From positions 1 through 64,000 of IMG/VR virus record IMGVR_UViG_3300014204_000011: a DNA stretch of 64,000 nucleotides; one strand, written 5' to 3'. The notes below the pieces were generated by a model, which worked only from the letters and a program-made list of their open reading frames with translations, had not been told where the DNA came from and did no database searches. Both the position numbers and the translations under genes were made by a program. Origin of the DNA: a virus. Lineage: Duplodnaviria; Caudoviricetes. Positions 7,500 to 43,342 of this stretch are shown here, one piece after another. Numbering within the stretch: position 1 is the stretch's first letter; every line of letters begins with the position of its first letter.

Positions 7500-7520
7500 A
7501 TTTACACCATCCTTAAAATA

Positions 7521-8202: not shown

Positions 8203-8229
8203 CGTTTTTTGTTATTTTATATAAAATGA

Positions 8230-8257: not shown

Positions 8258-8289
8258 GTTTTTATTAAAAATAATAAAGGAGTTAGATT

Positions 8290-9444: not shown

Positions 9445-9749
9445 AAGATAAACAAAGGCAAAGAAGCCGTCAACTAATGGAAATAAATCTTTACAGAACT
9501 CTTTGTATAGAGCTTATTAAAATAATTACTGCTTCAGGTATAAAATTACCTGCGCATGTGATGAAAGTGGTCGATGTATGCTTTCCTATGGCATCTAAAA
9601 TTGTTCCAGAGGGACTTTTACAGGAAAAACGATGTACGATATGCTCTAAGGCAAAAAAATGCAATACAGGGCTTTATCGCTTTGCTATAGGTGGATGTGG
9701 GGATAGGTTTTCTAAAAAATGGTGGTTGTTTTTTAAGAGGATAGGATAA
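9441..9749 (+). CDS. hypothetical protein
   Basis: ORF track; ATGA overlap. Confidence 0.6.
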   Translation: MKDKQRQRSRQLMEINLYRTLCIELIKIITASGIKLPAHVMKVVDVCFPMASKIVPEGLLQEKRCTICSKAKKCNTGLYRFAIGGCGDRFSKKWWLFFKRIG

Positions 9750-9750
9750 T

Positions 9751-23390: not shown

Positions 23391-24155
23391 ATGATTAGAG
23401 ATTTTCTTATTGTAATATTTATTTTTTGTTTAACTCTTGCGTCTTATGCTTCAGAATATGAGTCTCCAATGTCAATTTACAAAGATAATTATATAATTGC
23501 CGGAGATAAAGACAATCAGGTAAAAATTCAATTATCAGCAAAATTTAATATTTTTTATCCTTCAAATACCGGATTTAATTTGGGTTATACGCAATTAAGC
23601 AATTGGTATTGTTATGGCGACAGAGATACTTTTTATACTATGTACTGCCCTGAAGTTTTTTATAGATTTGAAAGTGGTAATAATCTATTTGATAATGCTG
23701 TTATACCTTTTATAGATTTTTTACAAGTATCTCCAATAGAACATAATAGTACAGGTGTTGAAGGTGAAAATCATAGAAGTATAAATCAATATTATGCACA
23801 GGCTCAATTAAGTTATGGAGAGGTTTATAATGTAGGTGCTGGCGGTAAATATTTTAGATACTATTCTATAAGTGATAAAAATGAAGATATAAATAAATAC
23901 AGAAAAAATTATGAAGCAGATATATTTTTTAAAATACGATCTAAAACTGTAAATTATTTAGATAAAGAGGAACTACATTTTAAATTTGGCGGTAATCCTT
24001 TAGGTAATGGCTGGTATTGTATAGAGGCTCAATTCAGGCTTATATCAAGTAAATTTCAGCCAAAATTTATGATCCAATACTATAAAGGATATTCGGAATT
24101 CATGGTTCAATATAATCGCAAAGATGAAGCGGTAAGGATAGGGTTAGTATTTTGA
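23391..24155 (+). CDS. pldA: outer-membrane phospholipase A (OMPLA)
   Basis: signal peptide; NY..., VKIQLS and YTQLSNW motifs; HNSTGVEGENHRSIN has the H/S/N triad spacing of E. coli HDSNGRSDPTSRSWN; C-terminal Phe. Confidence 0.88.
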   Translation: MIRDFLIVIFIFCLTLASYASEYESPMSIYKDNYIIAGDKDNQVKIQLSAKFNIFYPSNTGFNLGYTQLSNWYCYGDRDTFYTMYCPEVFYRFESGNNLFDNAVIPFIDFLQVSPIEHNSTGVEGENHRSINQYYAQAQLSYGEVYNVGAGGKYFRYYSISDKNEDINKYRKNYEADIFFKIRSKTVNYLDKEELHFKFGGNPLGNGWYCIEAQFRLISSKFQPKFMIQYYKGYSEFMVQYNRKDEAVRIGLVF

Positions 24156-24654: not shown

Positions 24655-26043
24655 ATGCCTGATGATAAAGACCAACAACATGAAGTCAAAGAAGAAAGAT
24701 ATGTTGAAGATTTAATTCTTTATTATCAGACTTATGTAAATGCGGTTATAAATGAAATATTTGTAGGTATAGGCATAAGTCTTGGTCAGACAGAAAAACA
24801 AGCTTATGCAATGGCTAAGACAGATCCTAAAAAACTTGAAAAAGCATTTTTTAAAGATGTATTTGAAAAGTTTAAAAATGTATTCAAACATAAAATTCCT
24901 AAATTCAGATTAAAACAAAATATATTTAACAAAGGCAAGCCATTAACCGAAAAGCAATGGGATGTTATAAGTAAAGCAATAGCTGAATACTGGAAACAAA
25001 ATACTTCCAAAGTCACTGAAGATGTAACTGTAAAAGGTTATGTGCTAGGCATAAAATCCTCTAAATATCGTAAAACTAAAATTGATAACACTAAGAAAAC
25101 CTTACCTGAAATAATCAAACATGAAGAAAAGGAAAGCGGAAAAAAATTTGCAGATAAGTTTGAAGAAGCTTATAAACGCTATGATTTTAAAAATAGTGAA
25201 AAAAATGCTATGAACAGGGCTTTTTCAAATATAGCTATGCACGTTTCTGATACTGGTGATGGAGTTAAGCAAGCCATAAGAAAAGTTGTTACTGAAGGTA
25301 TAAATGAAGGTAAAAGTCCGGTTGAAACTGCTTCAGATCTATATTGGAATATTCAGAAAGAAACCGGTAATGAAACTGCTGAAAGTGTAAGAAAAAATTG
25401 GAATAGGATTGCTGCAACAGAAATGAATTCAATATTTGAAGCCGGTATTTTAGCTCCTTATGAAGCACAGGCTATGGAAAGCTTGAAGACCGGTAAGGGT
25501 GTTTATTTTGTCAGAGTAAACGGAACGTGCGATTGGTGTAAACCAAGACAGGGTACTATAGTTAGATTAGTTCCTACAAGCATAGTAGGTGATGTAAATG
25601 ATGACAGTTTAAAATCTATGGGTATTGATGATCCCTATACCGATATAGCTATATGGGTAGGTAAAAACAATGTAGGTAGGAAAAAACAGGACTGGCTTAT
25701 ATGCTGTCCTGCTCACCCATTTAACAGAGCAAGCTTTTCACTTATTGATTTAGATACACAAGAATATGAACCTAAATTTGGAAGAGTAGTTAATAAAGTT
25801 CCTGAAAGTTTAAAACAATATGGAATTAAAAGAGATACATCTTTTGCAACTCCGGAATATAAAGAAAGTAAAAAACCGGTTAAAATAGGTGATAATCTTG
25901 TAAGATTTTATGATAGTGTTTATGAAGCTGTAGACAAAGAAAATTATAATAAGAAATTAGAATTATGGAAAAAAGATCCATCTCAACCTATACCTGTTAG
26001 TCGTAGCAGTACAGATTATAAACATATTTTTGGTGATTTATAA
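24655..26043 (+). CDS. MuF/SPP1 gp7-like head morphogenesis protein
   Basis: NWNRIAATEMN, CDWC and CPAHPFNR motifs; LEKA site near the N-terminus. Confidence 0.8.
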   Translation: MPDDKDQQHEVKEERYVEDLILYYQTYVNAVINEIFVGIGISLGQTEKQAYAMAKTDPKKLEKAFFKDVFEKFKNVFKHKIPKFRLKQNIFNKGKPLTEKQWDVISKAIAEYWKQNTSKVTEDVTVKGYVLGIKSSKYRKTKIDNTKKTLPEIIKHEEKESGKKFADKFEEAYKRYDFKNSEKNAMNRAFSNIAMHVSDTGDGVKQAIRKVVTEGINEGKSPVETASDLYWNIQKETGNETAESVRKNWNRIAATEMNSIFEAGILAPYEAQAMESLKTGKGVYFVRVNGTCDWCKPRQGTIVRLVPTSIVGDVNDDSLKSMGIDDPYTDIAIWVGKNNVGRKKQDWLICCPAHPFNRASFSLIDLDTQEYEPKFGRVVNKVPESLKQYGIKRDTSFATPEYKESKKPVKIGDNLVRFYDSVYEAVDKENYNKKLELWKKDPSQPIPVSRSSTDYKHIFGDL

Positions 26044-28673: not shown

Positions 28674-30686
28674 ATGAATAGAGATCAAATAATTGATTTA
28701 ATAGATAGACAAATAGACTTTACTGATATGAAAAAAGCTGGTCTTGCACTGCAAAAACATTATGAAATTAATTCAAGACGCATGGAAGCAATAGATGTTA
28801 AAAACTGTCTTGCTAATGGTCATCCAATTGCCATACAGGGAAAATTGATTATTGGTTATGATATGCAAAAAGCTTTTGAAAGTAGTGATAGCGAATTTTT
28901 TGATATAGAAAGACCGGTTGAAGCTATTGAAATTGTTGAAACTCTTCCAGAGCGAGAATATTTCGCTATTGTAGGTCGTAACGAATGGGGAGATATTTCA
29001 GAATTTAATAATATCATAGGTGATTTAAGACTTGGTGAAATATATCTGCCTAAACATTCTGCAATATTCAACTTCTTAAATCCTACGGAAAAGACTAAAA
29101 AAGAAAAAATTCAAAGTGTTCTTAACGGAGTTCAAGTAATTGTTTATGAAAGAGAAAACTATGTAGATAACTGCTTCCATGAGATCGGACACCTGTTCTG
29201 GAGAACTTGTACAAGATTTGAAGAAAAGATGCAATTTAAAGAATTATTTAAACATTTACGAACATCTTGTATTTATGAATACGAATGGGAGCGAAGTACG
29301 GAAGAAGAGGTTTTTTGTACAATTTATAAATGGTATATGAAGTCTGTGCTTATAAACAAGAGTTTTTACAACATACTTGAATACGAAGAAAGCTATGGAC
29401 TTAAATTATTACAAAGTGTTTTTGACCGTATCGCTAAAGAACGGATCATTGACGATATATGGGAAATGAGCAAAGAAGATGTTATTGAATATTTAAACCC
29501 TCCCCTGGATAAAACGACCGGAAAATATATTCGTAAATCAGGTATGTTTGATAAGATTAAAGATATAGAACTGCCTGAAAGCATATTGAACCGGATTGAA
29601 AGCGTACAGAATGGACAGGCTTTTGTTGGGCTTGGTAAAGCCGTAGTGCCGGTTAATAATAATCTGATTGATTTTGATAGAATTAAAATGATACCTTTGG
29701 AGAAAGCTAATGGTAAACCAACAATATATCTCGATCAAGATGGAATTGTTACAAATTTTGCAGAAGCCTACAAGATAGCCTTTAATCGTGATGTATTTAA
29801 AGATGACAGTTTTACAGTGACAGAAATGTGTAAAACTGAGCCAAGATTTTTCTTAACTATACCAGTATTACAGCGTGGTAAAGAATTATATAATCGCTTG
29901 GTTAAAAAGTATAATATAATATTTCTCACAACCGCTATGGATGAACTTGAATATTGTAGATCTGATAAAGTGACTTGGCTTAAACAGAATATATGTTCAG
30001 AGCCTACAATAATATTTTCTGATAATAAAGCTGATTATGCACATTCTGAAAAAGATATACTCGTGGATGATATGGCTCATAATTTAACCGCATTTTATGA
30101 AGCTGGAGGGACTGCAATCAATTTTAATTCTATGTCGAATGATGAGATAATGCAAAAGATTGCAGAGACATTAAATCCACAGGAAGAAATAAGACAGATA
30201 AAGCAACAAATTAAAGAAATGAAAGTTAATGTAGAGCCGAGTGAAAAACAAAAAGAGAATGGAAATTACGCTAAAGGAAAAATAATATTTAAACAGATAC
30301 CAATAACTATAGAAAATCCAAAGGGAAGTATAAGATCAGGCATAGGCGCAAACGGTGTGAAATGGTTGTCTAAAATGAGTTCACACTACGGATATATTAA
30401 AGGTACTGAAGGCAATGATGGAGATGAAATTGATTGCTTTATTGGAGATGATTTCAGCACAAACAAAGCCTTTGTTGTAAACCAGGGTTTTAATAATTTA
30501 TTCGATGAGCATAAAATTCTCCTCGGTTTTAATACAATAGAGGATGCCAGAACCGCTTTTCTGAAATGTTATTCTAAAGGTTGGGAAAAGAATATCATGA
30601 ACATAGTACCGACCAATACAAAAGTGTTGAGACAGTGGCTAAAGACCGGCAATTATAAAGAGCCGTTTAGTGGTGAGTTTAAATAA
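28674..30686 (+). CDS. polyvalent protein: zincin-like domain + HAD 5'(3')-nucleotidase-like domain + inorganic pyrophosphatase domain
   Basis: HEIGH; IYLDQDG...LVDD; IENPKGSIRSG...HYGYIKGTEGNDGDEIDCF...DEHKILLGF. Confidence 0.85.
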   Translation: MNRDQIIDLIDRQIDFTDMKKAGLALQKHYEINSRRMEAIDVKNCLANGHPIAIQGKLIIGYDMQKAFESSDSEFFDIERPVEAIEIVETLPEREYFAIVGRNEWGDISEFNNIIGDLRLGEIYLPKHSAIFNFLNPTEKTKKEKIQSVLNGVQVIVYERENYVDNCFHEIGHLFWRTCTRFEEKMQFKELFKHLRTSCIYEYEWERSTEEEVFCTIYKWYMKSVLINKSFYNILEYEESYGLKLLQSVFDRIAKERIIDDIWEMSKEDVIEYLNPPLDKTTGKYIRKSGMFDKIKDIELPESILNRIESVQNGQAFVGLGKAVVPVNNNLIDFDRIKMIPLEKANGKPTIYLDQDGIVTNFAEAYKIAFNRDVFKDDSFTVTEMCKTEPRFFLTIPVLQRGKELYNRLVKKYNIIFLTTAMDELEYCRSDKVTWLKQNICSEPTIIFSDNKADYAHSEKDILVDDMAHNLTAFYEAGGTAINFNSMSNDEIMQKIAETLNPQEEIRQIKQQIKEMKVNVEPSEKQKENGNYAKGKIIFKQIPITIENPKGSIRSGIGANGVKWLSKMSSHYGYIKGTEGNDGDEIDCFIGDDFSTNKAFVVNQGFNNLFDEHKILLGFNTIEDARTAFLKCYSKGWEKNIMNIVPTNTKVLRQWLKTGNYKEPFSGEFK

Positions 30687-31456
30687 TGCTTTATTTAAAG
30701 GTTGGTGAGAACAAATATATAAAGCTTGAAAGTCTTGAAAAGGCTAGAAGTCATAAATATGTAAGTAGAAAGCCTGATGGAAAGGGTGGGTGGAAATATT
30801 TTTATGCGGATAAAGATAATAAACCTTCGGTAAGAATGGCTAATTACAATGACAAATCTTTAAGAATTTATAACAATTTTGAAGGTAATATTTTTAGTGA
30901 AAGGCATGGAATAATACAATCAACAAGTAAACAGTCTATCATTAAAAGTATTGAAGTTGAAAAAGAAATTGTTAAGAATACAGATTTTGAAACCGGCGCA
31001 GCTTTTGACAAAAATGGGAAACTTCTAATAAAGAAAAAAGGTGTTTATGATAAAGTTAATTTTGTAGATCCTGAATACAGAATAATAAATGGTTCGGAAA
31101 TTTTTACACATAATCATCCAGAAGACAAATCTTTTAGTGATGACGATCTTATTTTCGCTCTTGTTTTAGGCATTAAAGAAATGCGAATTATATCTCCCTT
31201 AAAAACATATTCTTTTAAAATTAGCCATAAAAATAAATCTAAAGATTTACAAGAACTTTCTGATAATATAAAATATTATCAGAAAAAAATAATTCAACAT
31301 CAAAAAATTATTCAATCTGAGAATAGTGATTTAATGAATCAAAATCCTGATGAATATTTTTTAAAAAAAGATCATAAAGTGATAGAATCACTAAAGAATG
31401 ATTCTAATTTTTTAAAACATTTTAACATAAATTACGAGGTAAAAAATAATGAATGA
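30686..31456 (+). CDS. leader + KY..R.P.G.GG motif + JAB/JAMM-like toxin domain
   Basis: LEKA-RSHKYVSRKPDGKGGWKYFY; E...THNHPEDKSFSDDD. Confidence 0.7.
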   Translation: MLYLKVGENKYIKLESLEKARSHKYVSRKPDGKGGWKYFYADKDNKPSVRMANYNDKSLRIYNNFEGNIFSERHGIIQSTSKQSIIKSIEVEKEIVKNTDFETGAAFDKNGKLLIKKKGVYDKVNFVDPEYRIINGSEIFTHNHPEDKSFSDDDLIFALVLGIKEMRIISPLKTYSFKISHKNKSKDLQELSDNIKYYQKKIIQHQKIIQSENSDLMNQNPDEYFLKKDHKVIESLKNDSNFLKHFNINYEVKNNE

Positions 31457-31800
31457 TAATTTTTTTAATCCCATAAGTAAGGAAACGAAAGAAAAAGGTT
31501 TTTTTTCTTTAGGAGGTATGGAAAAAGATATAAAGAGGCAAGAAGAATTAAAGAATATAAACCTTAAAGATTTGGAAAAAGAAATAGAAGAACTGGAGAA
31601 GAGATTGGATCATGAATAATATTGAAATAAAAAATCCTGAAGTCCATATTGACGGATCTTCTAATAAATTATTTTATATTTTTGCAGATAAAGTCTTTAA
31701 AACAGGTAATAATCAAACCGAAAAAGAACAGCTAAAAGTTAAAATCAATAAATCAATACTTAATATCGAAGAAAAAAATATGCTATTAGGTTTTTTATGA
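31449..31800 (+). CDS. two small ORFs (31449-31619, 31612-31800)
   Basis: manual translation and ORF track; coupled overlaps. Confidence 0.5.
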
Positions 31801-32075
31801 CAGATTTAGAGAGTAGAAATTATCGTAAAGTTTTTCATCCAAATGGAATGAGTATAGATACTATAGATATGAATGAATCTTTTAAATGGGAGAAATCTTG
31901 TGAATATAGTTTTTCTGAAAAATCAAAACTTATAACTAAGATATTAACAAAATATGGTATTGAGGATGAAATAATAGTTCAAAGATTAAAGAAATGTTTA
32001 CCAAAAGGTAAAAATGAATTTTTATCTTATACAGATAATGAATACGAATCATTAATAAAGGAGTTTAACTTATGA
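31797..32075 (+). CDS. putative immunity protein, paralogue A
   Basis: shares SEKSK.I.KIL...Y...R.KKCLP.G.N...DNEY..L.KEFNL with 36056-36361. Confidence 0.6.
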   Translation: MTDLESRNYRKVFHPNGMSIDTIDMNESFKWEKSCEYSFSEKSKLITKILTKYGIEDEIIVQRLKKCLPKGKNEFLSYTDNEYESLIKEFNL

Positions 32076-35000
32076 AAACAAAAATAGACTTCTCGCTCTA
32101 TACTCCTCAGATGTTGCGTGATCAGATTCAAGAAGAGCTTTTAAAAGTCGATGATGCAAAGCAAGCGTCATACAATGCAATTGTTTTTCTCAATAATTTA
32201 TATGGAGCAAAGAACATGCAGAAGGCAAAAGAACTTTCCAAACTTATAAAAAAACAAATTATTGATAAAACTGGTAAATCAACTACAGTTTATGTCAAAC
32301 CCGAAGGATCTAAAACTGAATGGCTAAATAAATTCATTAGTTTCTTTGGATTTAGTAATGCAGGTCAAGCTAATCAGCGTATTGAACAGGATTATAAAAA
32401 GCTTGAACTTGATAAAAAAGGCGTGACCTGGTCAGATTGGAAAAGTCATGTAAGTGAATATTTCAGCAATAAAGATAAATGGGACAGATTTTTTTCAGGT
32501 AAATCTTCAGAGAAAAAAGCTACAGAAAAAAAAGAAGATGCAAAAGCAAAGAAAGCTGAAAAGAAACCGGTTAAGCAGACTTTTAAATTATCTCTCATGA
32601 AAGTAGTTGCAGGATTGTACGGTAAAGCTCCGGAGAAGAAGAAAGAAGAACCGGTAAAGGCGGTTGAAAAACCCATTGAAAAACCTATCGAAAAGCCAGT
32701 CGAAAACAATTTTGATACTATGCCAGAAACCGTTGCAGAACCTGAACCAGAACCAGTTAAAGAAGAGCCTGTTAAATCAGGTGAAGAAACTCTTCAGGGT
32801 AAATTCGATAGATGGAAAACAGGAGATTTAACAGGTGTTGAAGGTCATAAATTTAATATGACTAAAACTATGATGGGTAAAGGTGGTCCTAAAACATTTT
32901 TTAATGAAATTATTATAGAGAAAATATCAAATGGATTTATGAGTTATGTTGATGCTGTAGGTGGTAGGGAAAGTTTTTCAGGTGGCATTTCTGAAAAAGG
33001 GTTTATTAATGATTTAAAAAATGGTTCGATGATTCCCGTAGGTCTGGAAAAAACCATTGATACCGGTAACGGATCTAAGATTGAAGCTGTTAAAGCCTAC
33101 ACTCCTGAACAGAGAAAAGAGGTTAATGCCGATGCTAAAGAAGCGGCGAGAGAGGGTTATTTTAACGAACGACCGGCTGAGATATTAAATGTCGGTAAAG
33201 ATGTATGGGGTGCAGCTAGACATAATTATGATACTTATCAGCAAATGAACGCTGATGTAAATCAAATGGAAAAAGAAGGAACTGCACAAGCATATGTAAC
33301 AAAGAAGAACCTTTTCGGAGATTATGGACTTGCCAATAAAGATGAAAGAGTTGGCAAAGGTGAAACCGAATATAAGGTATTAGCAAGTTTTGTAATGAGA
33401 GAATATCTTTCTAAAATGCCTCCGAATAATCCTACAGATAGAGCAATGTATATGGATTTTTGTCGTGCCATTTCAAGACTTGATCAAAATACAACTGATG
33501 CTAAAACATTTTATTTTGGTATGGCTGAGACTTTTGCTCAGATGTTTCCGATAGAAGCACAAAAACCAGCCACTCCTGGACAGGGTATAAGCGTACTTGA
33601 TATGATACCACAGAATAGAAAAGGTAAAAAACCTGAAGACATTATAGGCCCTGTTCTTACGGCTTTATTCTATTCACTGAATCAGCAGGCTAATCAGAGC
33701 CGGAACATATATTACGGTATGGATAAGAAAGAACGTAAGCAGATGGATGTAATGAGTGCAGCACTTCTAGCTGAAATCGGTAAGACTAATAAGACTTATA
33801 ATGAACTTGAAGTTATGATTTTTGGAGAAACAAAACTATCCGGCATTAAAATGAAAAAAGGTGATGCGGTTGTGTTTGCTGAAAATCTTGCTGATCATGT
33901 TTATGCTATAAGAATAGATTATGCTAGTGATGAAGATAAATTAAAGCATGATGCTTTAATAAAAGAAATTAATAATATTGGAGCAGATGGTCATTTTCTA
34001 TATCTTTCAAATAAAGAAAAAGAAAAGAAATTACCTGAACTCAATAAGAAATATGGAACTAATTTTACTATGGATAAATCGTGGGAAGTTACGAAATATA
34101 TAGATGAATTAGTAAGAGAAAAATCAGTTGAAGCTGCTAAATATAGAATAAGAACTAAAATTTTCCCAGAAGAAAAAGGACAGATTATAAAAGTTGGTAA
34201 AAGTGATATAGAGGTTGCATTCAAATTTCCTAATGGAACAATTAAAGGTTTTAGAATGAAACCAAGTGAATTAAAACCTGAGAATGTAGAATCTATTTCA
34301 AAAGACATAAAAAGGAAAGAGACACTAATATTGAATCTTGCCGTTGAAAAAAAAGTAATTCGTAAAGGTGGTAAAGATTTCTCAGGTCTTTCAATTACTG
34401 AACTTCAAAATAAACTTACCGAAGATTTTAAATTCAAAGCTATTCAGTACGGAAACAGTGTACCAGATGACGAAAGACAGTATCATACACAATGGACTCT
34501 TGAATCAATGTCTGATCTTGAAGATATTACAGGCATACCATTAGAGCAACTTACAGCACGGGGTAAACTTGGTATAGCTTTTGGAGCAAGAGGTAAGCCT
34601 ATCCCTGGAATTGGAGCAGGTGCTTTAGCTCATTATGAACCTACAACTAAAATGATAAATATTACCCGTGCCAATGGTTACGGCAGTCTTGCTCATGAGT
34701 GGGCGCATTTCGCCGATAATATTTTATCACCAGATATGAATGATTATATTACTATTCAGCCCAAAGCTATTGTAAAAGAAGTAAACTCTTCTAATATTAA
34801 AATAGGTTCGATTTATGAACACGAAACAAGGAAAGGTAAAAAGACAATTACAGAAAGATACTATTATGATGGTAAAGATCCAGAATGGCCTTTTGCTAAA
34901 TTAAATAATGGTCAGAGTGAACCCGATAGTAAATCAATGCACTCTAACTTTTATAAATTTAAAAACGGGCAATCTCTAAAAGTTTTAGAACCTGATAATT

Positions 35001-35428
35001 TACCTTTTATGGAGATAGCTTCTAAAATTGCAAGATTATCACAACAGTCTTTGCACGATCAAGCCAATAAGATCGATGATGGAATAAACAAAAAGCATAT
35101 ATTAGAAGATCCATATTTAAATGACAGAAAAGAATGTTTCGCCAGAGCTTTTGAAATATATATTGCAGATAAACTCAAAGAAAAGGGAAGAGTGAATACA
35201 TATCTTGTAAGTCATAGAAAAACATTTGAACAGGATGGAGCTTCAATTTATCCGCAGGGAACATTTAGAACCGAAATAAACAAAATGTTTGATGAGTTTT
35301 TTATAGAAATAAACAAAAATCAGGAGATGAAAAAAGCAATAGACAAATTATTAAAACAGAATAAAAATGTTTATATAAAGAAACTCAATCCCATAACTCA
35401 AAAGCCCGAATACAGGAAGGTAAAGTGA
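32072..35428 (+). CDS. large polyvalent protein with LPD1-like C-terminal domain
   Basis: 1118 aa; LGIAFGARG, AHYEP, GSLAHEWAHFADN and ECFARAFEIYIADKL...NTYL. Confidence 0.8.
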   Translation: MKTKIDFSLYTPQMLRDQIQEELLKVDDAKQASYNAIVFLNNLYGAKNMQKAKELSKLIKKQIIDKTGKSTTVYVKPEGSKTEWLNKFISFFGFSNAGQANQRIEQDYKKLELDKKGVTWSDWKSHVSEYFSNKDKWDRFFSGKSSEKKATEKKEDAKAKKAEKKPVKQTFKLSLMKVVAGLYGKAPEKKKEEPVKAVEKPIEKPIEKPVENNFDTMPETVAEPEPEPVKEEPVKSGEETLQGKFDRWKTGDLTGVEGHKFNMTKTMMGKGGPKTFFNEIIIEKISNGFMSYVDAVGGRESFSGGISEKGFINDLKNGSMIPVGLEKTIDTGNGSKIEAVKAYTPEQRKEVNADAKEAAREGYFNERPAEILNVGKDVWGAARHNYDTYQQMNADVNQMEKEGTAQAYVTKKNLFGDYGLANKDERVGKGETEYKVLASFVMREYLSKMPPNNPTDRAMYMDFCRAISRLDQNTTDAKTFYFGMAETFAQMFPIEAQKPATPGQGISVLDMIPQNRKGKKPEDIIGPVLTALFYSLNQQANQSRNIYYGMDKKERKQMDVMSAALLAEIGKTNKTYNELEVMIFGETKLSGIKMKKGDAVVFAENLADHVYAIRIDYASDEDKLKHDALIKEINNIGADGHFLYLSNKEKEKKLPELNKKYGTNFTMDKSWEVTKYIDELVREKSVEAAKYRIRTKIFPEEKGQIIKVGKSDIEVAFKFPNGTIKGFRMKPSELKPENVESISKDIKRKETLILNLAVEKKVIRKGGKDFSGLSITELQNKLTEDFKFKAIQYGNSVPDDERQYHTQWTLESMSDLEDITGIPLEQLTARGKLGIAFGARGKPIPGIGAGALAHYEPTTKMINITRANGYGSLAHEWAHFADNILSPDMNDYITIQPKAIVKEVNSSNIKIGSIYEHETRKGKKTITERYYYDGKDPEWPFAKLNNGQSEPDSKSMHSNFYKFKNGQSLKVLEPDNLPFMEIASKIARLSQQSLHDQANKIDDGINKKHILEDPYLNDRKECFARAFEIYIADKLKEKGRVNTYLVSHRKTFEQDGASIYPQGTFRTEINKMFDEFFIEINKNQEMKKAIDKLLKQNKNVYIKKLNPITQKPEYRKVK

Positions 35429-36072
35429 CTAACAGACTTATAATTAAACTGGCTGATGGTCTTTATATAGATTTAAGTAAAGCCCGAAGTCATAAATATA
35501 TCAGTCGCAAACCTGATGGTAAAGGAGGTTGGATTTATACTTATTATAAAAAACCTGTTGGAAATAGTTATGCTGTAAATTATAATGATATGAGAGATTT
35601 TGATTATGAAAAAGCAGTTCAAATATATAAAGATACAGAATCTATAAGAAATATTAAAAATTATGAACATTCAAAAATATATGATAATAAAGGGATAGTG
35701 TTACTTTATAAAATATTTCCTAAAACTGGAGGGAGTTTTACTAATGAAGAATTAAATAAAATTGAAAATTCAAAATTATTAATACATAATCATCCTTCAG
35801 GAGATTCTTTTTCCACAAAAGATATTCAGTTAATTATCGAAAAAAATATAAATGAAATTAGAGCCATAGGTCAAAAAGAAAAAACAAAAACTATTTTTTC
35901 TTTAAAATTGGAAAAACAAATTCCAATTGAATTAAAAAGAGATTTATTGAATTACCATTTTAGCTTATGGAATATAAATAAAACAACTGGAGATAAATTT
36001 TTTGCTCATAAAACAATGCAAGATTTTATAAAAGTTTATGGAGAATATTTTAAATATGAAAGAATTAAATAA
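35425..36072 (+). CDS. leader + KY..R.P.G.GG motif + JAB/JAMM-like toxin domain (paralogue)
   Basis: LSKA-RSHKYISRKPDGKGGWIYTY; E...IHNHPSGDSFSTKD. Confidence 0.7.
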   Translation: MTNRLIIKLADGLYIDLSKARSHKYISRKPDGKGGWIYTYYKKPVGNSYAVNYNDMRDFDYEKAVQIYKDTESIRNIKNYEHSKIYDNKGIVLLYKIFPKTGGSFTNEELNKIENSKLLIHNHPSGDSFSTKDIQLIIEKNINEIRAIGQKEKTKTIFSLKLEKQIPIELKRDLLNYHFSLWNINKTTGDKFFAHKTMQDFIKVYGEYFKYERIK

Positions 36073-36361
36073 AAAAGATTTTAAAAGAAATAAAATTTAT
36101 CATGAATTGTTTTATCCAAATTCGCCTTTAGGTTTAGATGGAGAAGAAATGTCTTCTGAAAAATTTGCGGAAAAAATAAAATCTTCTAAAATATCTGAAT
36201 CAGAAAAAAGTAAAATAATTAAAATATTGATACAAAATTATGATTTTATAGATAAAAATATATACAACAGAATAAAAAAATGTCTACCAAATGGATTTAA
36301 TTCAATGTATTCAATAGAGGATAACGAATATTTTGAATTAAAAAAAGAGTTTAATTTATAA
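36056..36361 (+). CDS. putative immunity protein, paralogue B
   Basis: overlaps the stop of the JAB gene; paralogous to 31797-32075. Confidence 0.6.
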   Translation: MKELNKKDFKRNKIYHELFYPNSPLGLDGEEMSSEKFAEKIKSSKISESEKSKIIKILIQNYDFIDKNIYNRIKKCLPNGFNSMYSIEDNEYFELKKEFNL

Positions 36362-36402
36362 AAAAACATGAATATTATTAATAAAATGGAAGGTTAAATA
36401 AC

Positions 36403-39400
36403 ATGGCAAATAAAATATTTTTTAAAACAGTTGAAGGTAAATATGTATCACTTGATAAAGCTTCAAATCCCGAAGATAAAGTTCGTAAGGTTATGGGTGA
36501 GTTTAAAAGAGGTACTTTACATTCCAGTTCCGGTCAAAAGGTAACTTCAAAAGACCAGGCTTTGGCAATCGCAATGTCGGAGAGTGGATTATCTAAACAA
36601 ATGGTTGCTGATATTCTTATTGATTATGATGATATGGAAAAAGCAAGTCAGATAAAAGAAGGGATTAAAGTAGAAAAAGAACATATTCCTACTATGAAAT
36701 ATATTAAAGATAAGTTTGGAAAATATCATAAAATGGCTAATACTGAAGATATTGCCGAGCACATCGCCGGAGACCATCTTGAAGAGATAAAAGATTATTA
36801 TACAAGATTACTTGAAATGGAAAAACAGGCTAAAGGCGATAAAAAAAGACCTCAAATCGAAATTGATGTAATTAAATTTTTAATTGATAATCCGAATCCT
36901 GCGGATAGTAAAGTTCATACTTTTAGTGATAAAATAGGCATAGACACACATAAACTTGAAGCGATATTCTATAAACTTGCTACTGAAAGAGCTGAAATGA
37001 GTAAAGACATGCAGAAAGCTAAGTCTGCAATAGGTACTACTGCAACTTGGGCTGACGGTAAACAATATCGTAAAGTAGCTGAAGGTCAATGGGAACAGGT
37101 TAAGGGTGACGGTAAAAGCCATAATGCTAAATTAGGTGGCGGAGCACATGGTTATGGCAAACACGATGTAAGTACAGCACCGAAGCTTCATAAGAGATTT
37201 ATGGATTATCTACAGAACATGAGCCAGGAACATCGGGACATATTCAGAGGCGGTAAGTTTGATTTTGAAAAGAAAACATTTACAGCTATAGGCGGTAAAG
37301 TAGCTTTGCTTTGGAAAGATGATAAAGTTAATATTGTTAAGACTGATAAAATGGATAAAGCCCGTGTGACCAAATATATAAAAAGAGTGCCGAAGCCGTC
37401 AGGTAAGGGTTATTATTATTTCTATACAAAGCAGCAGTTTAACCAGTATAAAGAGACTGGAAAAGTTCCTGAACAAGAAAAAGGCGATTCAGCTTTACAA
37501 AAGATATTCAAATTTTTAGGTGTTGATAATTGGATGGACGGTAGTAAAAAAATAGGTTCAATATACGAATCTAATAAAAGCTCTCTTCTTGAAAATAATG
37601 TCGATAAAAAGACTTTTGCTGAATACAGTGTAGAATACTTATCTAATAAGGAAAAATGGGATTCTCGTTTAAGTGGTGAGAAAAAAGAAAAGTCAGAGTC
37701 AAAGCCTAAGTCTGAACAGCCTAAATCTGAGAAAAAAGAGAGTGGTGATAAAAAAGAAGGTAAATGGAACATGGGTGTAATGCGAGCTATTGCAGGGATT
37801 TATGGAAGCGGAGAAATAAAGAAAATTGATACAGAAATGCCTATGCCTACTACTCCCAACAAAAAAGATGATAAGAATAAAAAAGATAAGGAAGCCCCTA
37901 AAAAAGGTTTTGAAGATGAGCTAAATGAACGGGAAAAAGAAGGTAACAATAAAACTTATACTAATAAGATAAAGCAATTACAAAATGAAATAAATAGTTT
38001 TTCCAAAACAGCTTCCGGAGGAAGTAAATATTCTCTTGATTCTAAAGGAAATGAAGATTCTGGAGAAATGTCTATTCAATTAAAAGATAGTGTATCTGGT
38101 AAAATTATTCCTAATACACAAATAACTGGTAAAATTAAAGATTTTTTAAATATTAAAAATCAATTGATTGAAAAAATGAAAGAAATAGACAGTAATGACA
38201 AATCCCCTGACAACTTCGATACTATGCCGGAGGGGGACGATATAGAAAAAGGCATAGAGGATTATTATAAAAAAATTACAGAAGAATTTAGTAATGAAAA
38301 ACCTGATTTAAATAAAATCAAGAAAGTTGCTAAAGAAAAAGCTGATAAAATAAATTCAATTATGAATAAAGAAATTTCTTTAGATACAGGCGGAATAGTT
38401 AAGTCAAATAAGAAGTTTATACTTGAAAAATATGATCCAAAAGAAGATAAAATGACTTTTAAAGATAATAACGGAAAAACTCAGGAAATAACTTTTTCTA
38501 AATTTGAAAAAGAAAATCCTAAATTTTTTAACAGTCAAAAACCCTCCGCAACCGAAGCACTGAAAACTTTTACGATAGTAGATAATAATAATCCTGAAAG
38601 AACCGTAAAAGTGCAAGCTAAAGATGAAAATGAAGCTAAAGATAAAGGTGCTTCAGAACTTAAAACTACAAACATAAGAACTTATGAGTCAAGTAATAAA
38701 GTAGAAGCACTGAAAGATGAGTTGGGGAAGAAAAAGAGCGAGAGTAGAGAAAGAGAAATAACTGTTTTTGGTAAACAGCAAAAAGTTAAAACTAAGCCGA
38801 TAGAATTAAACTTGGGATATGGTCATCCTTTTGAGATTGCTAAAAGAGAATTTGGAAGTGGTCGCTCAGATTGGATTATTCTTGAAAGTAGTACGGGTTT
38901 AAAGGTTGGAGATGGCAAAACTCAAAAAGAGGCTATTAGTAACGCTGAATCTATGATAAAAAATTATACTCCAACAGAGAATGAATTTAAAAAATTAATT
39001 GAAAAAAGTTTATCTTCCGAAAATGTTTTAAAACGTGAAAAAGAAATAGAAAAAAATAAAGAAATAGATAAAAAAGTTGAAAAAGATTTTGAAGATAAAT
39101 CTGAAAAAGGCCAGTCCCAAATAAAGAAAAACGAAGAAGATGATAAGCGAAAACAGGTTCAAAAAGATAAATTAAATTCTTCAGATCCACAGAAAAAATA
39201 TGATGCAATGAAGGAAGAAATTAGAGATTTTTCAGAAAGAAATAATATATCTGAAAAAGAAATAACAAAAGAATGGATAAATGAAGAAAGAAAACGTTTT
39301 CAACAGGATATAAAAGATGCTTATAAGTATAAAAAACCGAAAGAAGCTGGAGTTTATAAAGTTGGATTAAAAGAACTTGATAATATTGAAAAATATCAAA

Positions 39401-39861
39401 AAGAAATGATTTCTTTAAAAGAAGAACTACTCGGCCCGAAAATGTTCAAAGCCCTGTCAAATCTAAGAGAAGAGTTAATGTTTAAAGCCCAAACTACAAA
39501 ATATATTAAAAGAATACCCGATCCAAAAGGCAAGGGATATATTTACTTTTACACACAAGATCAGGTTAAAGCATATCAGAAAGATGGAACTATACCAAAT
39601 CAGCAGAAAAAGCCTAAGACTAAACCAGAACAAGGTGGTAAAACTAACATAGAAAAGCTTAAAGAAACTACAAAAAAAATAGCCACTATTGTTGCTGATG
39701 CTTTAAGTGCTAAAGATGCGGTAAATCCTGCTGGACAGGCAGTAGAACAAGCCGGAGAAGATATAAACGAAAAGAACAAAATGAAAAAAAGACTTGAAGA
39801 AAAGCAAGTACCTGATAAAAAGAAACAAGTTAATAAACCGGAGGAAAAACCGAAAAAGTGA
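36403..39861 (+). CDS. 1152-aa multi-module head cargo protein (DUF6496-like, DUF5661-like, two KY..R.P.P.GKG repeats)
   Basis: KVRKVMGEFKRGTLHSSSGQKVTSKDQALAIAMSE; GIKVEKEH...DHLEEIKDYYTRL; modules preceded by LDKA, MEKA, MQKA, MDKA and MFKA. Confidence 0.75.
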   Translation: MANKIFFKTVEGKYVSLDKASNPEDKVRKVMGEFKRGTLHSSSGQKVTSKDQALAIAMSESGLSKQMVADILIDYDDMEKASQIKEGIKVEKEHIPTMKYIKDKFGKYHKMANTEDIAEHIAGDHLEEIKDYYTRLLEMEKQAKGDKKRPQIEIDVIKFLIDNPNPADSKVHTFSDKIGIDTHKLEAIFYKLATERAEMSKDMQKAKSAIGTTATWADGKQYRKVAEGQWEQVKGDGKSHNAKLGGGAHGYGKHDVSTAPKLHKRFMDYLQNMSQEHRDIFRGGKFDFEKKTFTAIGGKVALLWKDDKVNIVKTDKMDKARVTKYIKRVPKPSGKGYYYFYTKQQFNQYKETGKVPEQEKGDSALQKIFKFLGVDNWMDGSKKIGSIYESNKSSLLENNVDKKTFAEYSVEYLSNKEKWDSRLSGEKKEKSESKPKSEQPKSEKKESGDKKEGKWNMGVMRAIAGIYGSGEIKKIDTEMPMPTTPNKKDDKNKKDKEAPKKGFEDELNEREKEGNNKTYTNKIKQLQNEINSFSKTASGGSKYSLDSKGNEDSGEMSIQLKDSVSGKIIPNTQITGKIKDFLNIKNQLIEKMKEIDSNDKSPDNFDTMPEGDDIEKGIEDYYKKITEEFSNEKPDLNKIKKVAKEKADKINSIMNKEISLDTGGIVKSNKKFILEKYDPKEDKMTFKDNNGKTQEITFSKFEKENPKFFNSQKPSATEALKTFTIVDNNNPERTVKVQAKDENEAKDKGASELKTTNIRTYESSNKVEALKDELGKKKSESREREITVFGKQQKVKTKPIELNLGYGHPFEIAKREFGSGRSDWIILESSTGLKVGDGKTQKEAISNAESMIKNYTPTENEFKKLIEKSLSSENVLKREKEIEKNKEIDKKVEKDFEDKSEKGQSQIKKNEEDDKRKQVQKDKLNSSDPQKKYDAMKEEIRDFSERNNISEKEITKEWINEERKRFQQDIKDAYKYKKPKEAGVYKVGLKELDNIEKYQKEMISLKEELLGPKMFKALSNLREELMFKAQTTKYIKRIPDPKGKGYIYFYTQDQVKAYQKDGTIPNQQKKPKTKPEQGGKTNIEKLKETTKKIATIVADALSAKDAVNPAGQAVEQAGEDINEKNKMKKRLEEKQVPDKKKQVNKPEEKPKK

Positions 39862-40052
39862 AAGAAAAGATAATTATAAAAGATGCGGTTAAAAGAAACT
39901 GCCCGTTTTGTGGTACTATGTATGCTTACGAAAATAAAGAATTAGGGCAGGTTGTATATAGAAATGTAGCTTTTATATTTATAGATAAAGCAAAAAGCAT
40001 TGAAACTATAAAATGTAAACAGTGCGGAAATGTAGTAGCAATCAATACTTAA
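39858..40052 (+). CDS. Zn-ribbon (Com-like) protein
   Basis: CPFCG...CKQCG upstream of the prohead protease. Confidence 0.6.
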   Translation: MKEKIIIKDAVKRNCPFCGTMYAYENKELGQVVYRNVAFIFIDKAKSIETIKCKQCGNVVAINT

Positions 40053-40061
40053 AATTAAGAC

Positions 40062-40091
40062 TTGACAGATTTTATATTTTTGTTTTAGAAT
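40062..40091 (+). promoter_or_regulatory. sigma70-type promoter of the capsid operon
   Basis: TTGACA-N18-TAGAAT. Confidence 0.6.
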
Positions 40092-40160
40092 GTACTCTAA
40101 ATAATAAACAAATAATCCAGCCGTTACAAGGAAATGTTTATTTCTCTAAAGAGAGGTAAA

Positions 40161-41045
40161 ATGTTTTTTCAGATTAACGGCTTAACCATCCAAAACCTAC
40201 AAAAAGCTTCAGACGACAAGCTTGTTAAAGTTGATATTATAGCCAATCATCTTACCGAAGATAGTGACGGAGAAGTAATACTCAAAGAAGCATTTTCTCC
40301 CGAAGTTATCAATGATTTTCTTTCGACCGGCGTAATTAATTTCTGGCATGATAATAAAAATCCTCTCTTATCAAAAGAAGAGCAAATGAACGCTTTACTT
40401 GGTAAACCCATAGCTTTTAGATGGGAGAATGGAAAGCCTGTAGTTACTGCACAACTTACTAAATCACATCCTATCGTACAAACAATGATGCCTCATCTTG
40501 AAGCAGGTAATCCTGTGTATAGCGCAAGCGTAGATGGATCTAAAATGGTTATGCTTGTAGAAAATAGTGAAGGTGAGAAAAAGAAAGTCATACCTAAAAT
40601 CAAATGGAACGGACTTGCCATAGCCCCCTGTAATTCAGTAATCAATCGAGAACCAGGTGTTAATGTTAAATTGTTAAGTAAGGCAAATGATATAATTGCT
40701 GAATTTAACGATATGGATAGCTTTAAAATGATGTCTGGACAGATCTTCTCCCAAGAAACCGAACTCCGTAAAGCTTTATCTGCCCCTGAAAGTGTAGGTG
40801 ATATGCAAAACACTTCAGGAGGAGTTATAACAAAACAAGATTTAGAAAAAAGCGTTACATCTTTAACCTTTTCCGAGGATGAAGCATGTAATCTTATAGA
40901 TACAATATTAGGTATTAAAAATGGTTCGATACCAATAACAATAAATGAATATAAGAACCATTTTAAAAATAATGAAGAATTTGCTGATAAGTCTTATCGG
41001 CTGTTCGATAAATATTTCAAAAAAAACAACAAGGAGCAATCGTAA
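40161..41045 (+). CDS. prohead (maturation) protease
   Basis: DSDGEVI, FWHD, SASVDG and LAIAP...N motifs of HK97-like proteases; GAGG RBS; upstream of scaffold and MCP. Confidence 0.85.
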   Translation: MFFQINGLTIQNLQKASDDKLVKVDIIANHLTEDSDGEVILKEAFSPEVINDFLSTGVINFWHDNKNPLLSKEEQMNALLGKPIAFRWENGKPVVTAQLTKSHPIVQTMMPHLEAGNPVYSASVDGSKMVMLVENSEGEKKKVIPKIKWNGLAIAPCNSVINREPGVNVKLLSKANDIIAEFNDMDSFKMMSGQIFSQETELRKALSAPESVGDMQNTSGGVITKQDLEKSVTSLTFSEDEACNLIDTILGIKNGSIPITINEYKNHFKNNEEFADKSYRLFDKYFKKNNKEQS

Positions 41046-41046
41046 C

Positions 41047-41826
41047 ATGATAACAAAAGAAGAATTGTTACAGAAAGGAATTGATCCTGCCGAAGCTGAT
41101 AAGATAATTTCGGCTCTCGAAGGACAAGCTGAAAATTCCTCTCCCCTTGAAGCTCTAAATAAGGCTCTAAAAGATGATTCAGAAATGGATTCTCTTTTTA
41201 AAGCAGCCAAAAAGGGAGAGGGTGATGAGGATGACGAAGAGGATGAAGAGGAATATGACGAAAAGTTCATGAAAAAGATGAAAAAGTACATGAAGTCAAA
41301 AGGCAAAGAAGACAGTGGTGATGACGATGACGACAAAGGCTTTTTCGGAAAAGAAATGAAAAAAGCTGTTGATGACATTAATCCTGATTCAGATGGACTT
41401 GTTATTGAAATGGCTGATTTTAAACCGGTTTTTGAGTCTATGGTATCGACAATACAAAAGATGTCAAAAGCTATATCCGGACTTGAAAGAAAGGTTGAAG
41501 TTCTTTCAGAGCAAAACTCTGATTCTTACAGTCTTTTGGCTAAAGCTGCTGCTGTTACTGCCGAAACTGCGGAGATTGTAACTGGAATGGGTAATATTCC
41601 GGCTGGAAGAAAAGGTGCTTTAATAGCAGACATGAAAAAAGCTAAACAAGTCGAAAATGTAGATCCTCAAAAAGTTTGGACAGCTCTCGCTAAGGCTGTA
41701 AATGCCGGTGATTTGAAAGCTGGAGAAATTGGATCTAAATTTGAAAGTGCTGGAAAAAGATTCGGTTTTCTATCTGATCCAGAACAGGCTTATGTTATGG
41801 AACTTATGAAAAAGGAGGCTAACTAA
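41047..41826 (+). CDS. capsid scaffold protein
   Basis: AAGGAG RBS; acidic and helical; seven [L/M]xKA sites. Confidence 0.8.
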   Translation: MITKEELLQKGIDPAEADKIISALEGQAENSSPLEALNKALKDDSEMDSLFKAAKKGEGDEDDEEDEEEYDEKFMKKMKKYMKSKGKEDSGDDDDDKGFFGKEMKKAVDDINPDSDGLVIEMADFKPVFESMVSTIQKMSKAISGLERKVEVLSEQNSDSYSLLAKAAAVTAETAEIVTGMGNIPAGRKGALIADMKKAKQVENVDPQKVWTALAKAVNAGDLKAGEIGSKFESAGKRFGFLSDPEQAYVMELMKKEAN

Positions 41827-41827: not shown

Positions 41828-43342
41828 ATGGATGAACTATATATGTTAGCAGAAAACGGGATGGGGGACATGGGGCTTGGCTCTCTATCGCAACTTGAAG
41901 CATTAAGTAAAGCTCTTTCTGCCCCTGCGAGTTATACAGATCTTTATACAACTCCAGGTGGCTCACTTACAATGCAATCATTGGAAATGATGCTTGCAAC
42001 TCTTACTCTTAAAGCTACTGATTTTACTCTATGGCAGGATATGAACAAGATGAAAGCATATTCTACTGTTGAAGAATATGATCAGCAGACTGGTCTTGGT
42101 ATCTCTGATGGTGGATTTGTTGACCAATTCAGCAATCCTACATTTCAAGACGCTGATTTTATCAAACAAATCTCAATTGTTAAGTTCATGAGAGAAGGTT
42201 GGAAGGTTGGTGATGTACAGGAAGCAACCAGAACAACTATAGACATAAGAACAAAACAACAGCAAGCTGCTATGGCAAGGATGTTGAGAAACCTTGACCG
42301 TGCGCTTTATAACGGTAACTCTGCATGGATTCCTGAAAGTATTGATGGTCTTGCTAAAACCATTGCTGCTTCTTCTTCAGAACAGATTTATGATATGAGA
42401 GGCGGTAATGTAACTATGGGTACATTTAACCTTATCGGTCAGCTTATCACTGAAGGAAATGGTCAGGTAGAAAATGCGAAAATATATGTTTCTCCGGCTG
42501 GAGTTCAAAATCTAAGCACTATTACTGAAGACGGTACTACTGCTGCTAATAACAGAAAGATAATGAAATCTGGTGATGCTAATATTACTATCGGTGGTAA
42601 AATATCAGGTATTATGACAAATTTCGGTGAGATGAAACCGAGAATGGATAAAATACTTGGTCTTGAATTTGAAGCACAAGGCGTTCCTAAATACAGGAAT
42701 AATACTACCGGTCTTTGGGTAGAAGGTGCTACTGCTGATAATGCTCCTTCAGCTCCGGCGGTTGCTCTTACTGTTAATGCTGTTGGTACAGGCTCTAAGT
42801 TTAGCGCAGGTACAACCAGACCTTCAGGCGTTGCATATTCTTATAGAGTAAGTGCAAGGAATAAATATGGAAGATCAATAGCTTGCGCTGCTGTAACGGC
42901 TGGTTCAACTGTAGCTGCCGGTGGATCTATTTCAATTGCTATTACTCCCGCTGCTGGAGATAGCGGTGCGAAAGTTCCTTCTTGTTTCGTAATTTATGCT
43001 AAAAAAACAGAAGATGCGAATAATGATTATAGATACATGGACACAATCGCTGCGGATGCAACTAATCCTCTTGCTGCCGTAACATATGAAGATAAAAATC
43101 TTTATATACCAGGTACAGCGAGAATGTATGTTATAGACCAAACTACACAGGGAGAAAGCAGAGTTCTTTCTTATGCTCAGTTACTTCCTATTCACAACAC
43201 AGATCTTGCTAAAGTCGGGCCTTATAGCCAGGGACTTATCAATCTGTATGGTACTATGAAATATTACAAGCCGAATGTTCTTGTTGAAATCAGAAATATC
43301 GGTGTATCTCAGACAAATGCAAATCTTTACAATGTAGTTTAA
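41828..43342 (+). CDS. major capsid protein
   Basis: 504 aa; LEALSKA propeptide junction, QSLE, STVEEY; Fn3-like insert YSYRVSARNKYGRS. Confidence 0.9.
   Translation: MDELYMLAENGMGDMGLGSLSQLEALSKALSAPASYTDLYTTPGGSLTMQSLEMMLATLTLKATDFTLWQDMNKMKAYSTVEEYDQQTGLGISDGGFVDQFSNPTFQDADFIKQISIVKFMREGWKVGDVQEATRTTIDIRTKQQQAAMARMLRNLDRALYNGNSAWIPESIDGLAKTIAASSSEQIYDMRGGNVTMGTFNLIGQLITEGNGQVENAKIYVSPAGVQNLSTITEDGTTAANNRKIMKSGDANITIGGKISGIMTNFGEMKPRMDKILGLEFEAQGVPKYRNNTTGLWVEGATADNAPSAPAVALTVNAVGTGSKFSAGTTRPSGVAYSYRVSARNKYGRSIACAAVTAGSTVAAGGSISIAITPAAGDSGAKVPSCFVIYAKKTEDANNDYRYMDTIAADATNPLAAVTYEDKNLYIPGTARMYVIDQTTQGESRVLSYAQLLPIHNTDLAKVGPYSQGLINLYGTMKYYKPNVLVEIRNIGVSQTNANLYNVV

Follow-up and report, generated by a model that had tools for sequence, protein, structure and literature searches.

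The DNA analysed here, referred to as the window, is the first 64 kb (64,000 nucleotides, nt) of IMGVR_UViG_3300014204_000011, a complete 85,750-bp virus record of the Caudoviricetes with direct terminal repeats. The source phage is uncultured and known as an IMG/VR record, and the G+C content of the window is about 30%. Between the portal and MuF genes and the protease, scaffold and capsid genes lies an array of cargo genes (28674-39861). Two open reading frames (ORFs) inside this array, termed JAB1 and JAB2, encode proteins with a shared N-terminus and a C-terminal domain that resembles the JAB/JAMM metalloenzymes, and each is followed by a member of one family of small proteins. A preliminary description had interpreted these four ORFs as two paralogous toxin/immunity-like pairs that use a delivery module other than MuF. 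JAB1 and JAB2 are best explained as stand-alone copies of a widespread, unannotated RadC-like JAB/JAMM domain without a Pfam model, and the source is best explained as an 85.7-kb myophage in which a polyvalent array has been split into translationally coupled genes (28674-39861). The JAB genes, their parts and the small genes beside them are as follows (aa, amino acids).

30686..31456, plus strand: JAB1, 256 aa
30686-30745: leader of JAB1 (aa 1-20), ending in LEKA (aa 17-20)
30746-30805: HKY hairpin module of JAB1 (aa 21-40), followed by a low-confidence linker and then the JAB/JAMM domain (about aa 75-256)
Predicted catalytic residues of JAB1: E102, H142-x-H144...S151..D154 (31109-31147)
31449..31619, plus strand: 56-aa ORF overlapping the JAB1 stop, of no known family and without [LM]xKA
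31612..31800, plus strand: 62-aa ORF with no homolog among the fetched proteins
31797..32075, plus strand: small-family member 1, 92 aa
35425..36072, plus strand: JAB2, 215 aa, with a GTG start
35425-35484: leader of JAB2 (aa 1-20), ending in LSKA
35485-35544: HKY module of JAB2 (aa 21-40), followed by the JAB domain (about aa 60-215)
Predicted catalytic residues of JAB2: E81, H121-N-H123-P-S-G...S130..D133 (35785-35823)
36056..36361, plus strand: small-family member 2, 101 aa

All four ORFs are as the preliminary description gave them, and both sets are paralogous. JAB1 and JAB2 share 32% identity over 176 aa (BLASTP, E 7e-19), and the two small proteins match at E 2e-11, with 50% identity over the C-terminal 44 aa. 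Common to the JAB proteins are the leader, the string L(E/S)KA-RSHKY(V/I)SRKPDGKGGWxYxY and, behind it, the motif HNHP-x3-SFS-x2-D. The AlphaFold (AF2) model has a mean predicted local distance difference test score (pLDDT) of 77, with high values over residues 70-256. When compared with known structures by VIA-align, the top 16 matches were all JAMM/MPN proteins (Z 9.0 down to 6.3), including PfJAMM1 (5ld9; Z 9.0, root-mean-square deviation 3.3, 109 aligned), CBASS Cap3 (9ild; 7.8), a bacterial deubiquitinase for ubiquitin-like proteins (Ubl; 8tyy; 7.5) and RadC (2qlc; 7.2), as well as Sst2, Rpn11 and BRCC36. The top Foldseek matches were AMSH and RadC, with a probability of 0.93-0.97 and an E value of only about 0.01.

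The residues expected at the metal site are well preserved. In the alignments, E, H-x-H, S and D show little or no variation (for JAB2, E81, G90, H121, N122, H123 and D133 are invariant), and H-x-H-x5-7-S-x2-D is kept in 147 of the 162 best representative relatives, with a His-Ser spacing of six residues in 142. The commonest form of the motif in the family is HNHPSG, which is the RadC signature, and HNHPGG is also frequent; JAB2 reads HNHPSG and JAB1 reads HNHPED. Three fused relatives exceed the cut-off of the Pfam RadC model (PF04002, 22.1 bits), at 28.8 (P0025), 28.1 (P0063) and 23.5 bits (P0031; P numbers denote individual homologous or module-bearing proteins). These matches cover the HNHP segment only, and one of the three also touches Prok-JAB. 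No Pfam or PHROG family matched the window JAB proteins or nine stand-alone relatives, and a PDB sequence/profile search with the JAB alignment gave no match. Pfam, PHROGs and PADLOC returned no significant family for JAB1, JAB2, the two small proteins or the 56- and 62-aa ORFs, for which only chance-level matches were obtained (DUF3979, Csm6 at E 3e-4).

Because of the fold matches, the intact catalytic motif and the RadC matches of fused relatives, the placement of this domain in the JAB superfamily is supported, with a sequence signature nearest to that of RadC, and the domain is probably an active metalloenzyme. The preliminary assignment of JAB/JAMM-like C-terminal domains is thereby upheld. 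With RadC and the JAMM peptidases the domain has in common the MPN fold and the E...HxH...S..D metal site, and HNHPSG is common to it and RadC. However, the loop from the second His to the Ser is one residue shorter in the window family (6, not 7), and the window JAB proteins have a C-terminal helical hairpin extension and no Pfam match. No Ubl, E1/E2 or CD-NTase partner was noticed near the window JAB genes.

Close homologs of these proteins are scarce, with only 15 among 5.8 billion proteins, and a tblastn search with JAB1 against 50,697 phage records found one weak match (a megablast search with the region found none). With a profile built from the close homologs, the number of cluster representatives rises to 3163 at E <= 1e-3, of which 957 also reach E <= 1e-10. 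In the best 150 of these, the domain either makes up a protein of its own (150-260 aa) or is one of the modules of a giant protein. It is fused to MuF in P0025, P0042, P0063 and P0074, to Phage_min_cap2 and ADPrib_exo_Tox in P0049, to RelA_SpoT in P0044, to ART-PolyVal in P0023 and to an XkdF-type prohead protease in P0043. In such fusions a separate toxin-type domain often follows downstream of it (P0049, P0044, P0025). More distant stand-alone relatives adjoin portal, MuF, DRAT-like, InPase/ART-PolyVal and SNF2 genes. From these contexts, the JAB domain appears to be a regular constituent of MuF- and head-linked polyvalent arrays rather than a polymorphic toxin tip.

The N-terminal 40 aa of the JAB proteins are nearly invariant and far more conserved than the remainder. 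Since the DNA of the two module copies in JAB1 and JAB2 differs at synonymous codon positions, the conservation reflects purifying selection on the protein, and recent gene conversion is ruled out as its source. Scanning with the pattern KYxxRxPxxxGxGxxxYxY detects four copies of the module in the window, namely residues 21-40 of JAB1 and JAB2 and two copies inside the cargo ORF at 36403. This ORF begins with a short leader of the JAB type ending in LDKA, and its internal copies have the form KA+KYIKRxPxxKGKGxxYFY (37372-37425 and 39499-39552). Degenerate versions occur at both ends of the cargo ORF at 32072, which has a long leader followed by MQKA and a degenerate module at its N-terminus and MKKA with a degenerate module at its C-terminus. 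Some JAB homologs carry the variant DL(S/T)KLxKKxxxDKNGxxxTVxVK at the module position.

Foreign proteins also contain the HKY module, up to three times internally in the giant proteins P0044, P0059, P0068, P0087, P0148, P0055 and P0023, and as a single copy in P0134 (NUDIX). The bearers include RelA/SpoT, Zeta-toxin, ddrB-ParB, NUDIX, ferritin-like or ART-PolyVal domains. Each copy in the window and in close relatives is directly preceded by [LM]xKA, whereas foreign copies have looser KA/KG contexts. One of the modules in P0055 lies near a sub-threshold match to Pfam DUF3892 (residues 471-492; 20.2 bits, cut-off 22.3), which may provide a lead to the fold of the module. A feature search of the Atlas with the 48 N-terminal aa of JAB2 and with the small protein gave nothing usable, and a full-text literature search for the motif string PDGKGG found no occurrence. 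Given this result and the absence of the terms capsid-targeting and JAB-partner from the paper on polyvalent proteins (PMC5512222), the leader, the [LM]xKA site, the HKY module and the small partner are apparently undescribed.

These data modify the preliminary view of the N-terminal region. The shared element is real and distinct from MuF, but it is common to several head-module proteins and not confined to the two JAB ORFs. A more apt description of the "carrier" is a combination of short leader, putative [LM]xKA processing site and repeated hairpin module (about 20 aa). These elements appear to mark all cargo fragments, also within giant proteins. In foreign proteins the module flanks Zeta toxin, RelA/SpoT and ART domains; at this locus the C-terminal part is always JAB.

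The [LM]xKA motif itself was counted across the head and cargo genes, which are listed here together with other landmarks of the window.

5679-6548: tyrosine recombinase (PF00589, E 1.6e-25)
17543-19201, plus strand: portal
23391-24155: phospholipase A1 of the OMPLA type (Pfam PLA1, E 5e-21), located after the portal gene and before the MuF-like gene
24655-26043, plus strand: MuF/head-morphogenesis protein, a weak match (phrog_2468, E 3e-5)
28674..30686, plus strand: cargo protein, 670 aa, with a zincin-like HEIGH motif, NT5C and InPase (a polyvalent-protein domain) and four [LMIF]xKA sites
32072..35428, plus strand: cargo protein, 1118 aa, with a HEWAH motif (by eye) and LPD1 (Pfam)
36403..39861, plus strand: cargo protein, 1152 aa, with DUF6496 and DUF5661
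39885-39902 and 40062-40091: terminator-like hairpin and the region's best promoter-like site, lying between the cargo array and the protease-scaffold-capsid genes
40134..41045, plus strand: candidate prohead protease, from gene position and motifs by eye, with three [LM]xKA sites
40945..41826, plus strand: acidic scaffold-like protein with seven [LM]xKA sites
41828..43342, plus strand: major capsid protein (MCP; phrog_752, E 2e-69) with LSKA at aa 26-29

For the head/cargo set (portal, MuF, five cargo ORFs, protease candidate, scaffold and MCP; 5525 aa), 27 occurrences of [LM]xKA were counted against 3.7 +- 1.9 in within-protein shuffles (n=500), an enrichment of about seven-fold that none of the 500 shuffles reached. 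In all other ORFs of at least 90 aa (11,885 aa) there were 5, with 4.8 expected. In a sister phage (82.5-kb contig), the head and cargo proteins contain 24 sites where 2.8 are expected and the tail genes 1 where 1.6 are expected, and the positions are conserved. The site falls at aa 17-20 in both JAB proteins; in the window it is absent from the tail proteins, both small partners and the 56- and 62-aa ORFs. The MCP is distantly related to SPO1 Gp6.1 (E 3e-26), and its LSKA aligns with ALNKA of Gp6.1. The C-terminal ELRKA-LSAPESVG of the protease candidate resembles the N-terminal LSKA-LSAPASYT of the MCP, and a profile of the protease family finds residues 19-60 of SPO1 Gp6.1 as a weak match (E 0.75). 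This common segment may be a prohead-incorporation segment. Judging from its distribution, the prohead protease of this lineage most likely has [LM]xKA as its consensus, with KA as the putative point of cleavage.

The small proteins have no leader. The block KKCLPxGxN...DxEY..L..EF is invariant in eight members of the family; member 1 reads KKCLPKGKN...DNEY..L.KEFNL, and its closest relative follows a JAB-less stub in another contig (L017; L numbers denote contigs). Relatives number seven in the 5.8-billion-protein database and one in IMG/VR. The 17-nt overlap of ORF 36056 with JAB2 suggests translational coupling. The arrangement of JAB2 and its small gene recurs in L004, L006-L009 and L010-L012, and wherever an examined contig has an intact short JAB gene, its stop codon is overlapped by the small gene, by 17-35 nt (six contigs, four distinct pairs). 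This linkage is based on contigs with DNA and one gene table without DNA, in which the upstream genes encode 200-216 aa; their identity as short JAB genes comes from alignment of representatives from L004, L006, L007 and L010. The preliminary expectation that the small family accompanies JAB genes elsewhere is thus borne out, with L017 and most JAB relatives as exceptions.

The pair occupies two alternative sites, either inside the cargo array (the window, L004, L006-L009) or in the tail region (L010-L012). The tail-region site lies between a 128-aa and a 390-aa gene, and in the window the same two genes abut with nothing between them. Divergence proceeds similarly in both partners, with identities of 81, 63 and 45% for the small proteins and 76-77, 58 and 51% for the JAB proteins. 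Complex prediction for JAB2 with its small partner gave a score of 0.65, against 0.55 for a control with an unrelated chain 1, which speaks neither for nor against binding. A PDB sequence/profile search with the small-family alignment returned only chance-level MarR matches (E 0.07). The small ORFs that follow distant JAB relatives were considered as members of one family, which was rejected as they are not alignable.

Several neighbouring features deserve mention. The 56-aa ORF at 31449 is conserved (70% identity) in a sister phage, where it again accompanies the JAB1-type gene. A descent of the 62-aa ORF, or of the interval 31440-31800, from a degraded short JAB gene was considered and discarded, as blastx found no similarity. 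In L004, the ortholog of the cargo ORF at 28674 (7430-10000, 856 aa) has an additional ART-PolyVal domain, before which stands the DLSKL variant of the module; KA-type sites flank the domain, the first being EKAK and not a strict [LM]xKA. The window ORF lacks ART-PolyVal and has LEKA at the junction, and the two versions appear to differ by gain or loss of a domain at module boundaries. In L002 (9165-10004) and L003 (7669-8508), a GIY-YIG/NUMOD3 homing-endonuclease gene lies between the InPase gene and a long-leader JAB gene and is a possible driver of cassette exchange in that region. A scan for promoters and terminators inside the cargo array found nothing informative.

The phospholipase A1 (OMPLA-type) gene suggests a Gram-negative host; in sister contigs the same gene is followed by a 55-aa NrdD-like ORF. 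The phage may be temperate, given its tyrosine recombinase. The tail genes downstream include a 595-aa ORF whose counterpart in a sister phage is a weak sheath match.

The features of the array are those of the phage-type polyvalent proteins (Iyer, Burroughs, Anand, de Souza, Aravind 2017; PMC5512222), with InPase at 28674, LPD1 at 32072, a position between portal and capsid genes, and fusions of the JAB domain elsewhere. As in that system, the region is a late or head region beside MuF, with InPase, LPD1, zincin/MPTase-like and (in a sister phage) ART-PolyVal neighbours. In other phages this JAB-like domain is fused into giant multi-effector proteins, and for both systems delivery with the invading DNA and proteolytic release of the units are predicted. 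However, the array described here is split into separate coupled genes. A further difference is that RadC/JAB was listed only in the polyvalent proteins of conjugative elements (PMC5512222), whereas the window JAB family is linked to MuF and head genes. The terms capsid-targeting and JAB-partner are not used in that paper.

With the MuF polymorphic toxins (Jamet et al. 2017; PMC5576092) the JAB genes share a place in the head module, proposed injection, a conserved N-terminus and a small downstream ORF proposed to confer immunity, and among the relatives of the JAB domain there are fusions to MuF as well as to ART or RelA-like toxin domains. In contrast to those toxins, JAB1 and JAB2 have no MuF domain and the C-terminal domain at the locus is not polymorphic; JAB is not mentioned by Jamet et al. 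2017 (PMC5576092).

Another comparison is provided by the proteins packaged in the heads of T4 and of giant phages. In T4, the protease gp21 removes the capsid-targeting sequence. Such an N-terminal sequence is present in the T4 internal proteins IPII and IPIII, and gp21 digests the scaffolding core (PMC9958956). The leader described here resembles the arrangement of the T4 internal proteins and Alt (PMC9958956) in ending at a putative protease consensus that is also found in the capsid protein and scaffold. The cargo of T4, SPN3US and phiKZ likewise consists of enzymes or anti-defence proteins ejected with the DNA (PMC9958956, PMC10052503), and the ejection proteins of SPN3US and phiKZ are described as cut by the prohead protease (PMC10052503). 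The consensus here differs, being [LM]xKA and not LxE or (A/S/G)xE, as does the repeated 20-aa hairpin module after each site, and the capsid belongs to a distantly SPO1-like lineage that has no relation to T4.

Taken together, JAB1 and JAB2 may be protease-trimmed, head-packaged and injected JAB effectors with a small, non-packaged partner, and the chances that this is correct are put at about even. In the proposed sequence of events, each cargo protein begins with a short leader ending in [LM]xKA, which would bring it into the assembling prohead. The prohead protease would then cut after KA, as it would in the capsid protein, the scaffold and the protease itself, and the mature fragment would start with the basic and aromatic HKY hairpin module. 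The JAB enzyme would be ejected with the DNA into the next host and would act there early, on one of the host's proteins or nucleic acids. The small protein has no leader or cleavage site and, under the address-tag model, would remain behind in the producing cell; there it would most likely bind the short-type JAB as an inhibitor ("immunity-like") or as a chaperone. Cleavage, packaging, ejection, the target and binding between JAB and partner are all inferred.

Several points weigh against this proposal. The HKY hairpin is modelled at low confidence (pLDDT about 58-60), and the first motif counts were already known when the head/cargo set for the statistics was chosen. The identity of ORF 40134 as a protease is unsupported by Pfam, PHROG annotation and PDB sequence/profile searches, and its 140 homologs are all unannotated. 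The substrate may be a peptide or a nucleic acid, and Iyer et al. (PMC5512222) argued that RadC-type JAB domains are not ubiquitin-tail peptidases. The partner is absent in most JAB relatives, which number in the thousands, including the long-leader paralogs of sister phages and the fused P0023. Two contigs depart from the usual pairing. At the tail-region site of L001 there are a JAB1-type gene, its 55-aa companion, a 54-aa remnant (11013-11177) of a short JAB C-terminus and then the small gene, which sits behind the JAB1-type gene only through the recombination that left this remnant. In L017 (3710-4249), also at the tail-region site, a 74-aa stub consisting of leader, LEKA and variant module without JAB precedes an intact small gene. 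These exceptions indicate that the linkage may be partly cassette history.

Because of the two alternative sites, the L001 remnant and the L017 stub, the cassette appears to be mobile and to recombine at its conserved ends, and the small gene can apparently outlive the JAB gene. In L001, a JAB1-type gene with its 55-aa ORF probably took the place of a short JAB gene, of which only the remnant is left. In one alternative account, the small family would be unrelated to JAB function and consist of small moron or regulatory genes at the 3' edge of a recombination hotspot, with JAB still serving as cargo. Its persistence both after loss of the JAB domain (L017) and after replacement of the original short JAB gene (L001) fits such a role, as does the presence of unrelated small ORFs behind distant JAB relatives, which is common in phage genomes. 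However, the small gene overlaps the stop in every contig with an intact short JAB gene (17-35 nt), its divergence tracks that of the JAB proteins, and its family is found nowhere else among 5.8 billion proteins. This explanation is regarded as unlikely, with some appreciable chance of being right.

The reading of the preliminary description, in which virion-delivered JAB toxins arrest growth, the small proteins are cognate immunity proteins for lysogens or producers and the leader/HKY element replaces MuF, is possible in principle, and several observations weaken it. The architecture is partly that of a polymorphic toxin, in that the N-terminal 40 aa are conserved, the remainder is diverged, and a tightly coupled small gene follows short JAB genes strictly; however, the part behind the leader is always JAB in these cassettes, and toxin polymorphism is lacking at the locus. 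Movement of the cassette between two genome sites with recombination at conserved ends, and the "orphan" small gene behind a truncated stub in L017 (as is often the case for orphan immunity genes), would both fit toxin-immunity pairs, and the tyrosine recombinase fits a temperate lifestyle. The HKY module also flanks recognised toxin-type domains in other proteins, but in P0049 and P0044 the JAB domain is upstream of a separate toxin-type domain, which suggests an accessory or general effector role. Neither the Pfam toxin-JAB families nor its immunity families match the window proteins, most members of the JAB family have no partner, and the other cargo enzymes of the same operon lack one too. 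Any toxic or immunity function is read from gene arrangement, and this account is considered quite improbable.

JAMM enzymes typically cleave after Gly-Gly tails. GKGG is present in most HKY modules, JAB and HKY occur together in giant proteins (P0023, P0044), P0043 is fused to an XkdF-type prohead protease, and Iyer et al. (PMC5512222) proposed that in-built peptidases process polyvalent proteins; yet a morphogenetic role, in which JAB trims or de-conjugates cargo (for example near the HKY Gly-Gly) in the producer or head while the small protein times its activity, is the most doubtful alternative, because the internal modules of ORF 36403 (GKGYYY, GKGYIY) and the degenerate variants are without Gly-Gly, the Gly-Gly lies in the turn of the model-predicted hairpin, the independent and strongly enriched [LM]xKA already explains the domain boundaries, and the RadC-like signature points away from ubiquitin-tail peptidases.

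The proposal of injected JAB effectors with a non-packaged partner can be taken further. Leader, [LM]xKA and HKY module might constitute a portable capsid-addressing and processing code, with the JAB proteins as injected counter-defence hydrolases and a dedicated inhibitor excluded from the virion; the counter-defence could consist, for example, in reversing ubiquitin-like or CD-NTase conjugation or in processing host nucleic acid. This extended reading, its counter-defence examples included, is speculative and has a low chance of being correct. If it is true, the JAB proteins and their partners would form a new kind of effector-inhibitor pair, whose enzyme comes from a domain family with more than 3000 clusters and no Pfam model.

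As judged from the genes, the novelty lies in the unannotated JAB family, the undescribed module and the lineage-specific partner gene, while the system itself would be of a known kind, that of head-packaged, protease-processed and injected polyvalent-type effectors. If the proposed explanation is true, a large unannotated JAB/RadC-like family would be a standard component of the effector arrays that phages deliver from the head, and the polyvalent-protein concept would be extended to a domain, RadC, previously thought to be confined to conjugative elements. The sequence grammar of leader, [LM]xKA and 20-aa hairpin module would predict which proteins of uncultured phages are packed in the head and injected, in a lineage that is abundant in metagenomes and distantly related to SPO1. 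Finally, JAB and its small partner would offer a testable effector-partner pair, in which a non-packaged small protein may control an injected enzyme, with relevance to early host takeover and counter-defence.

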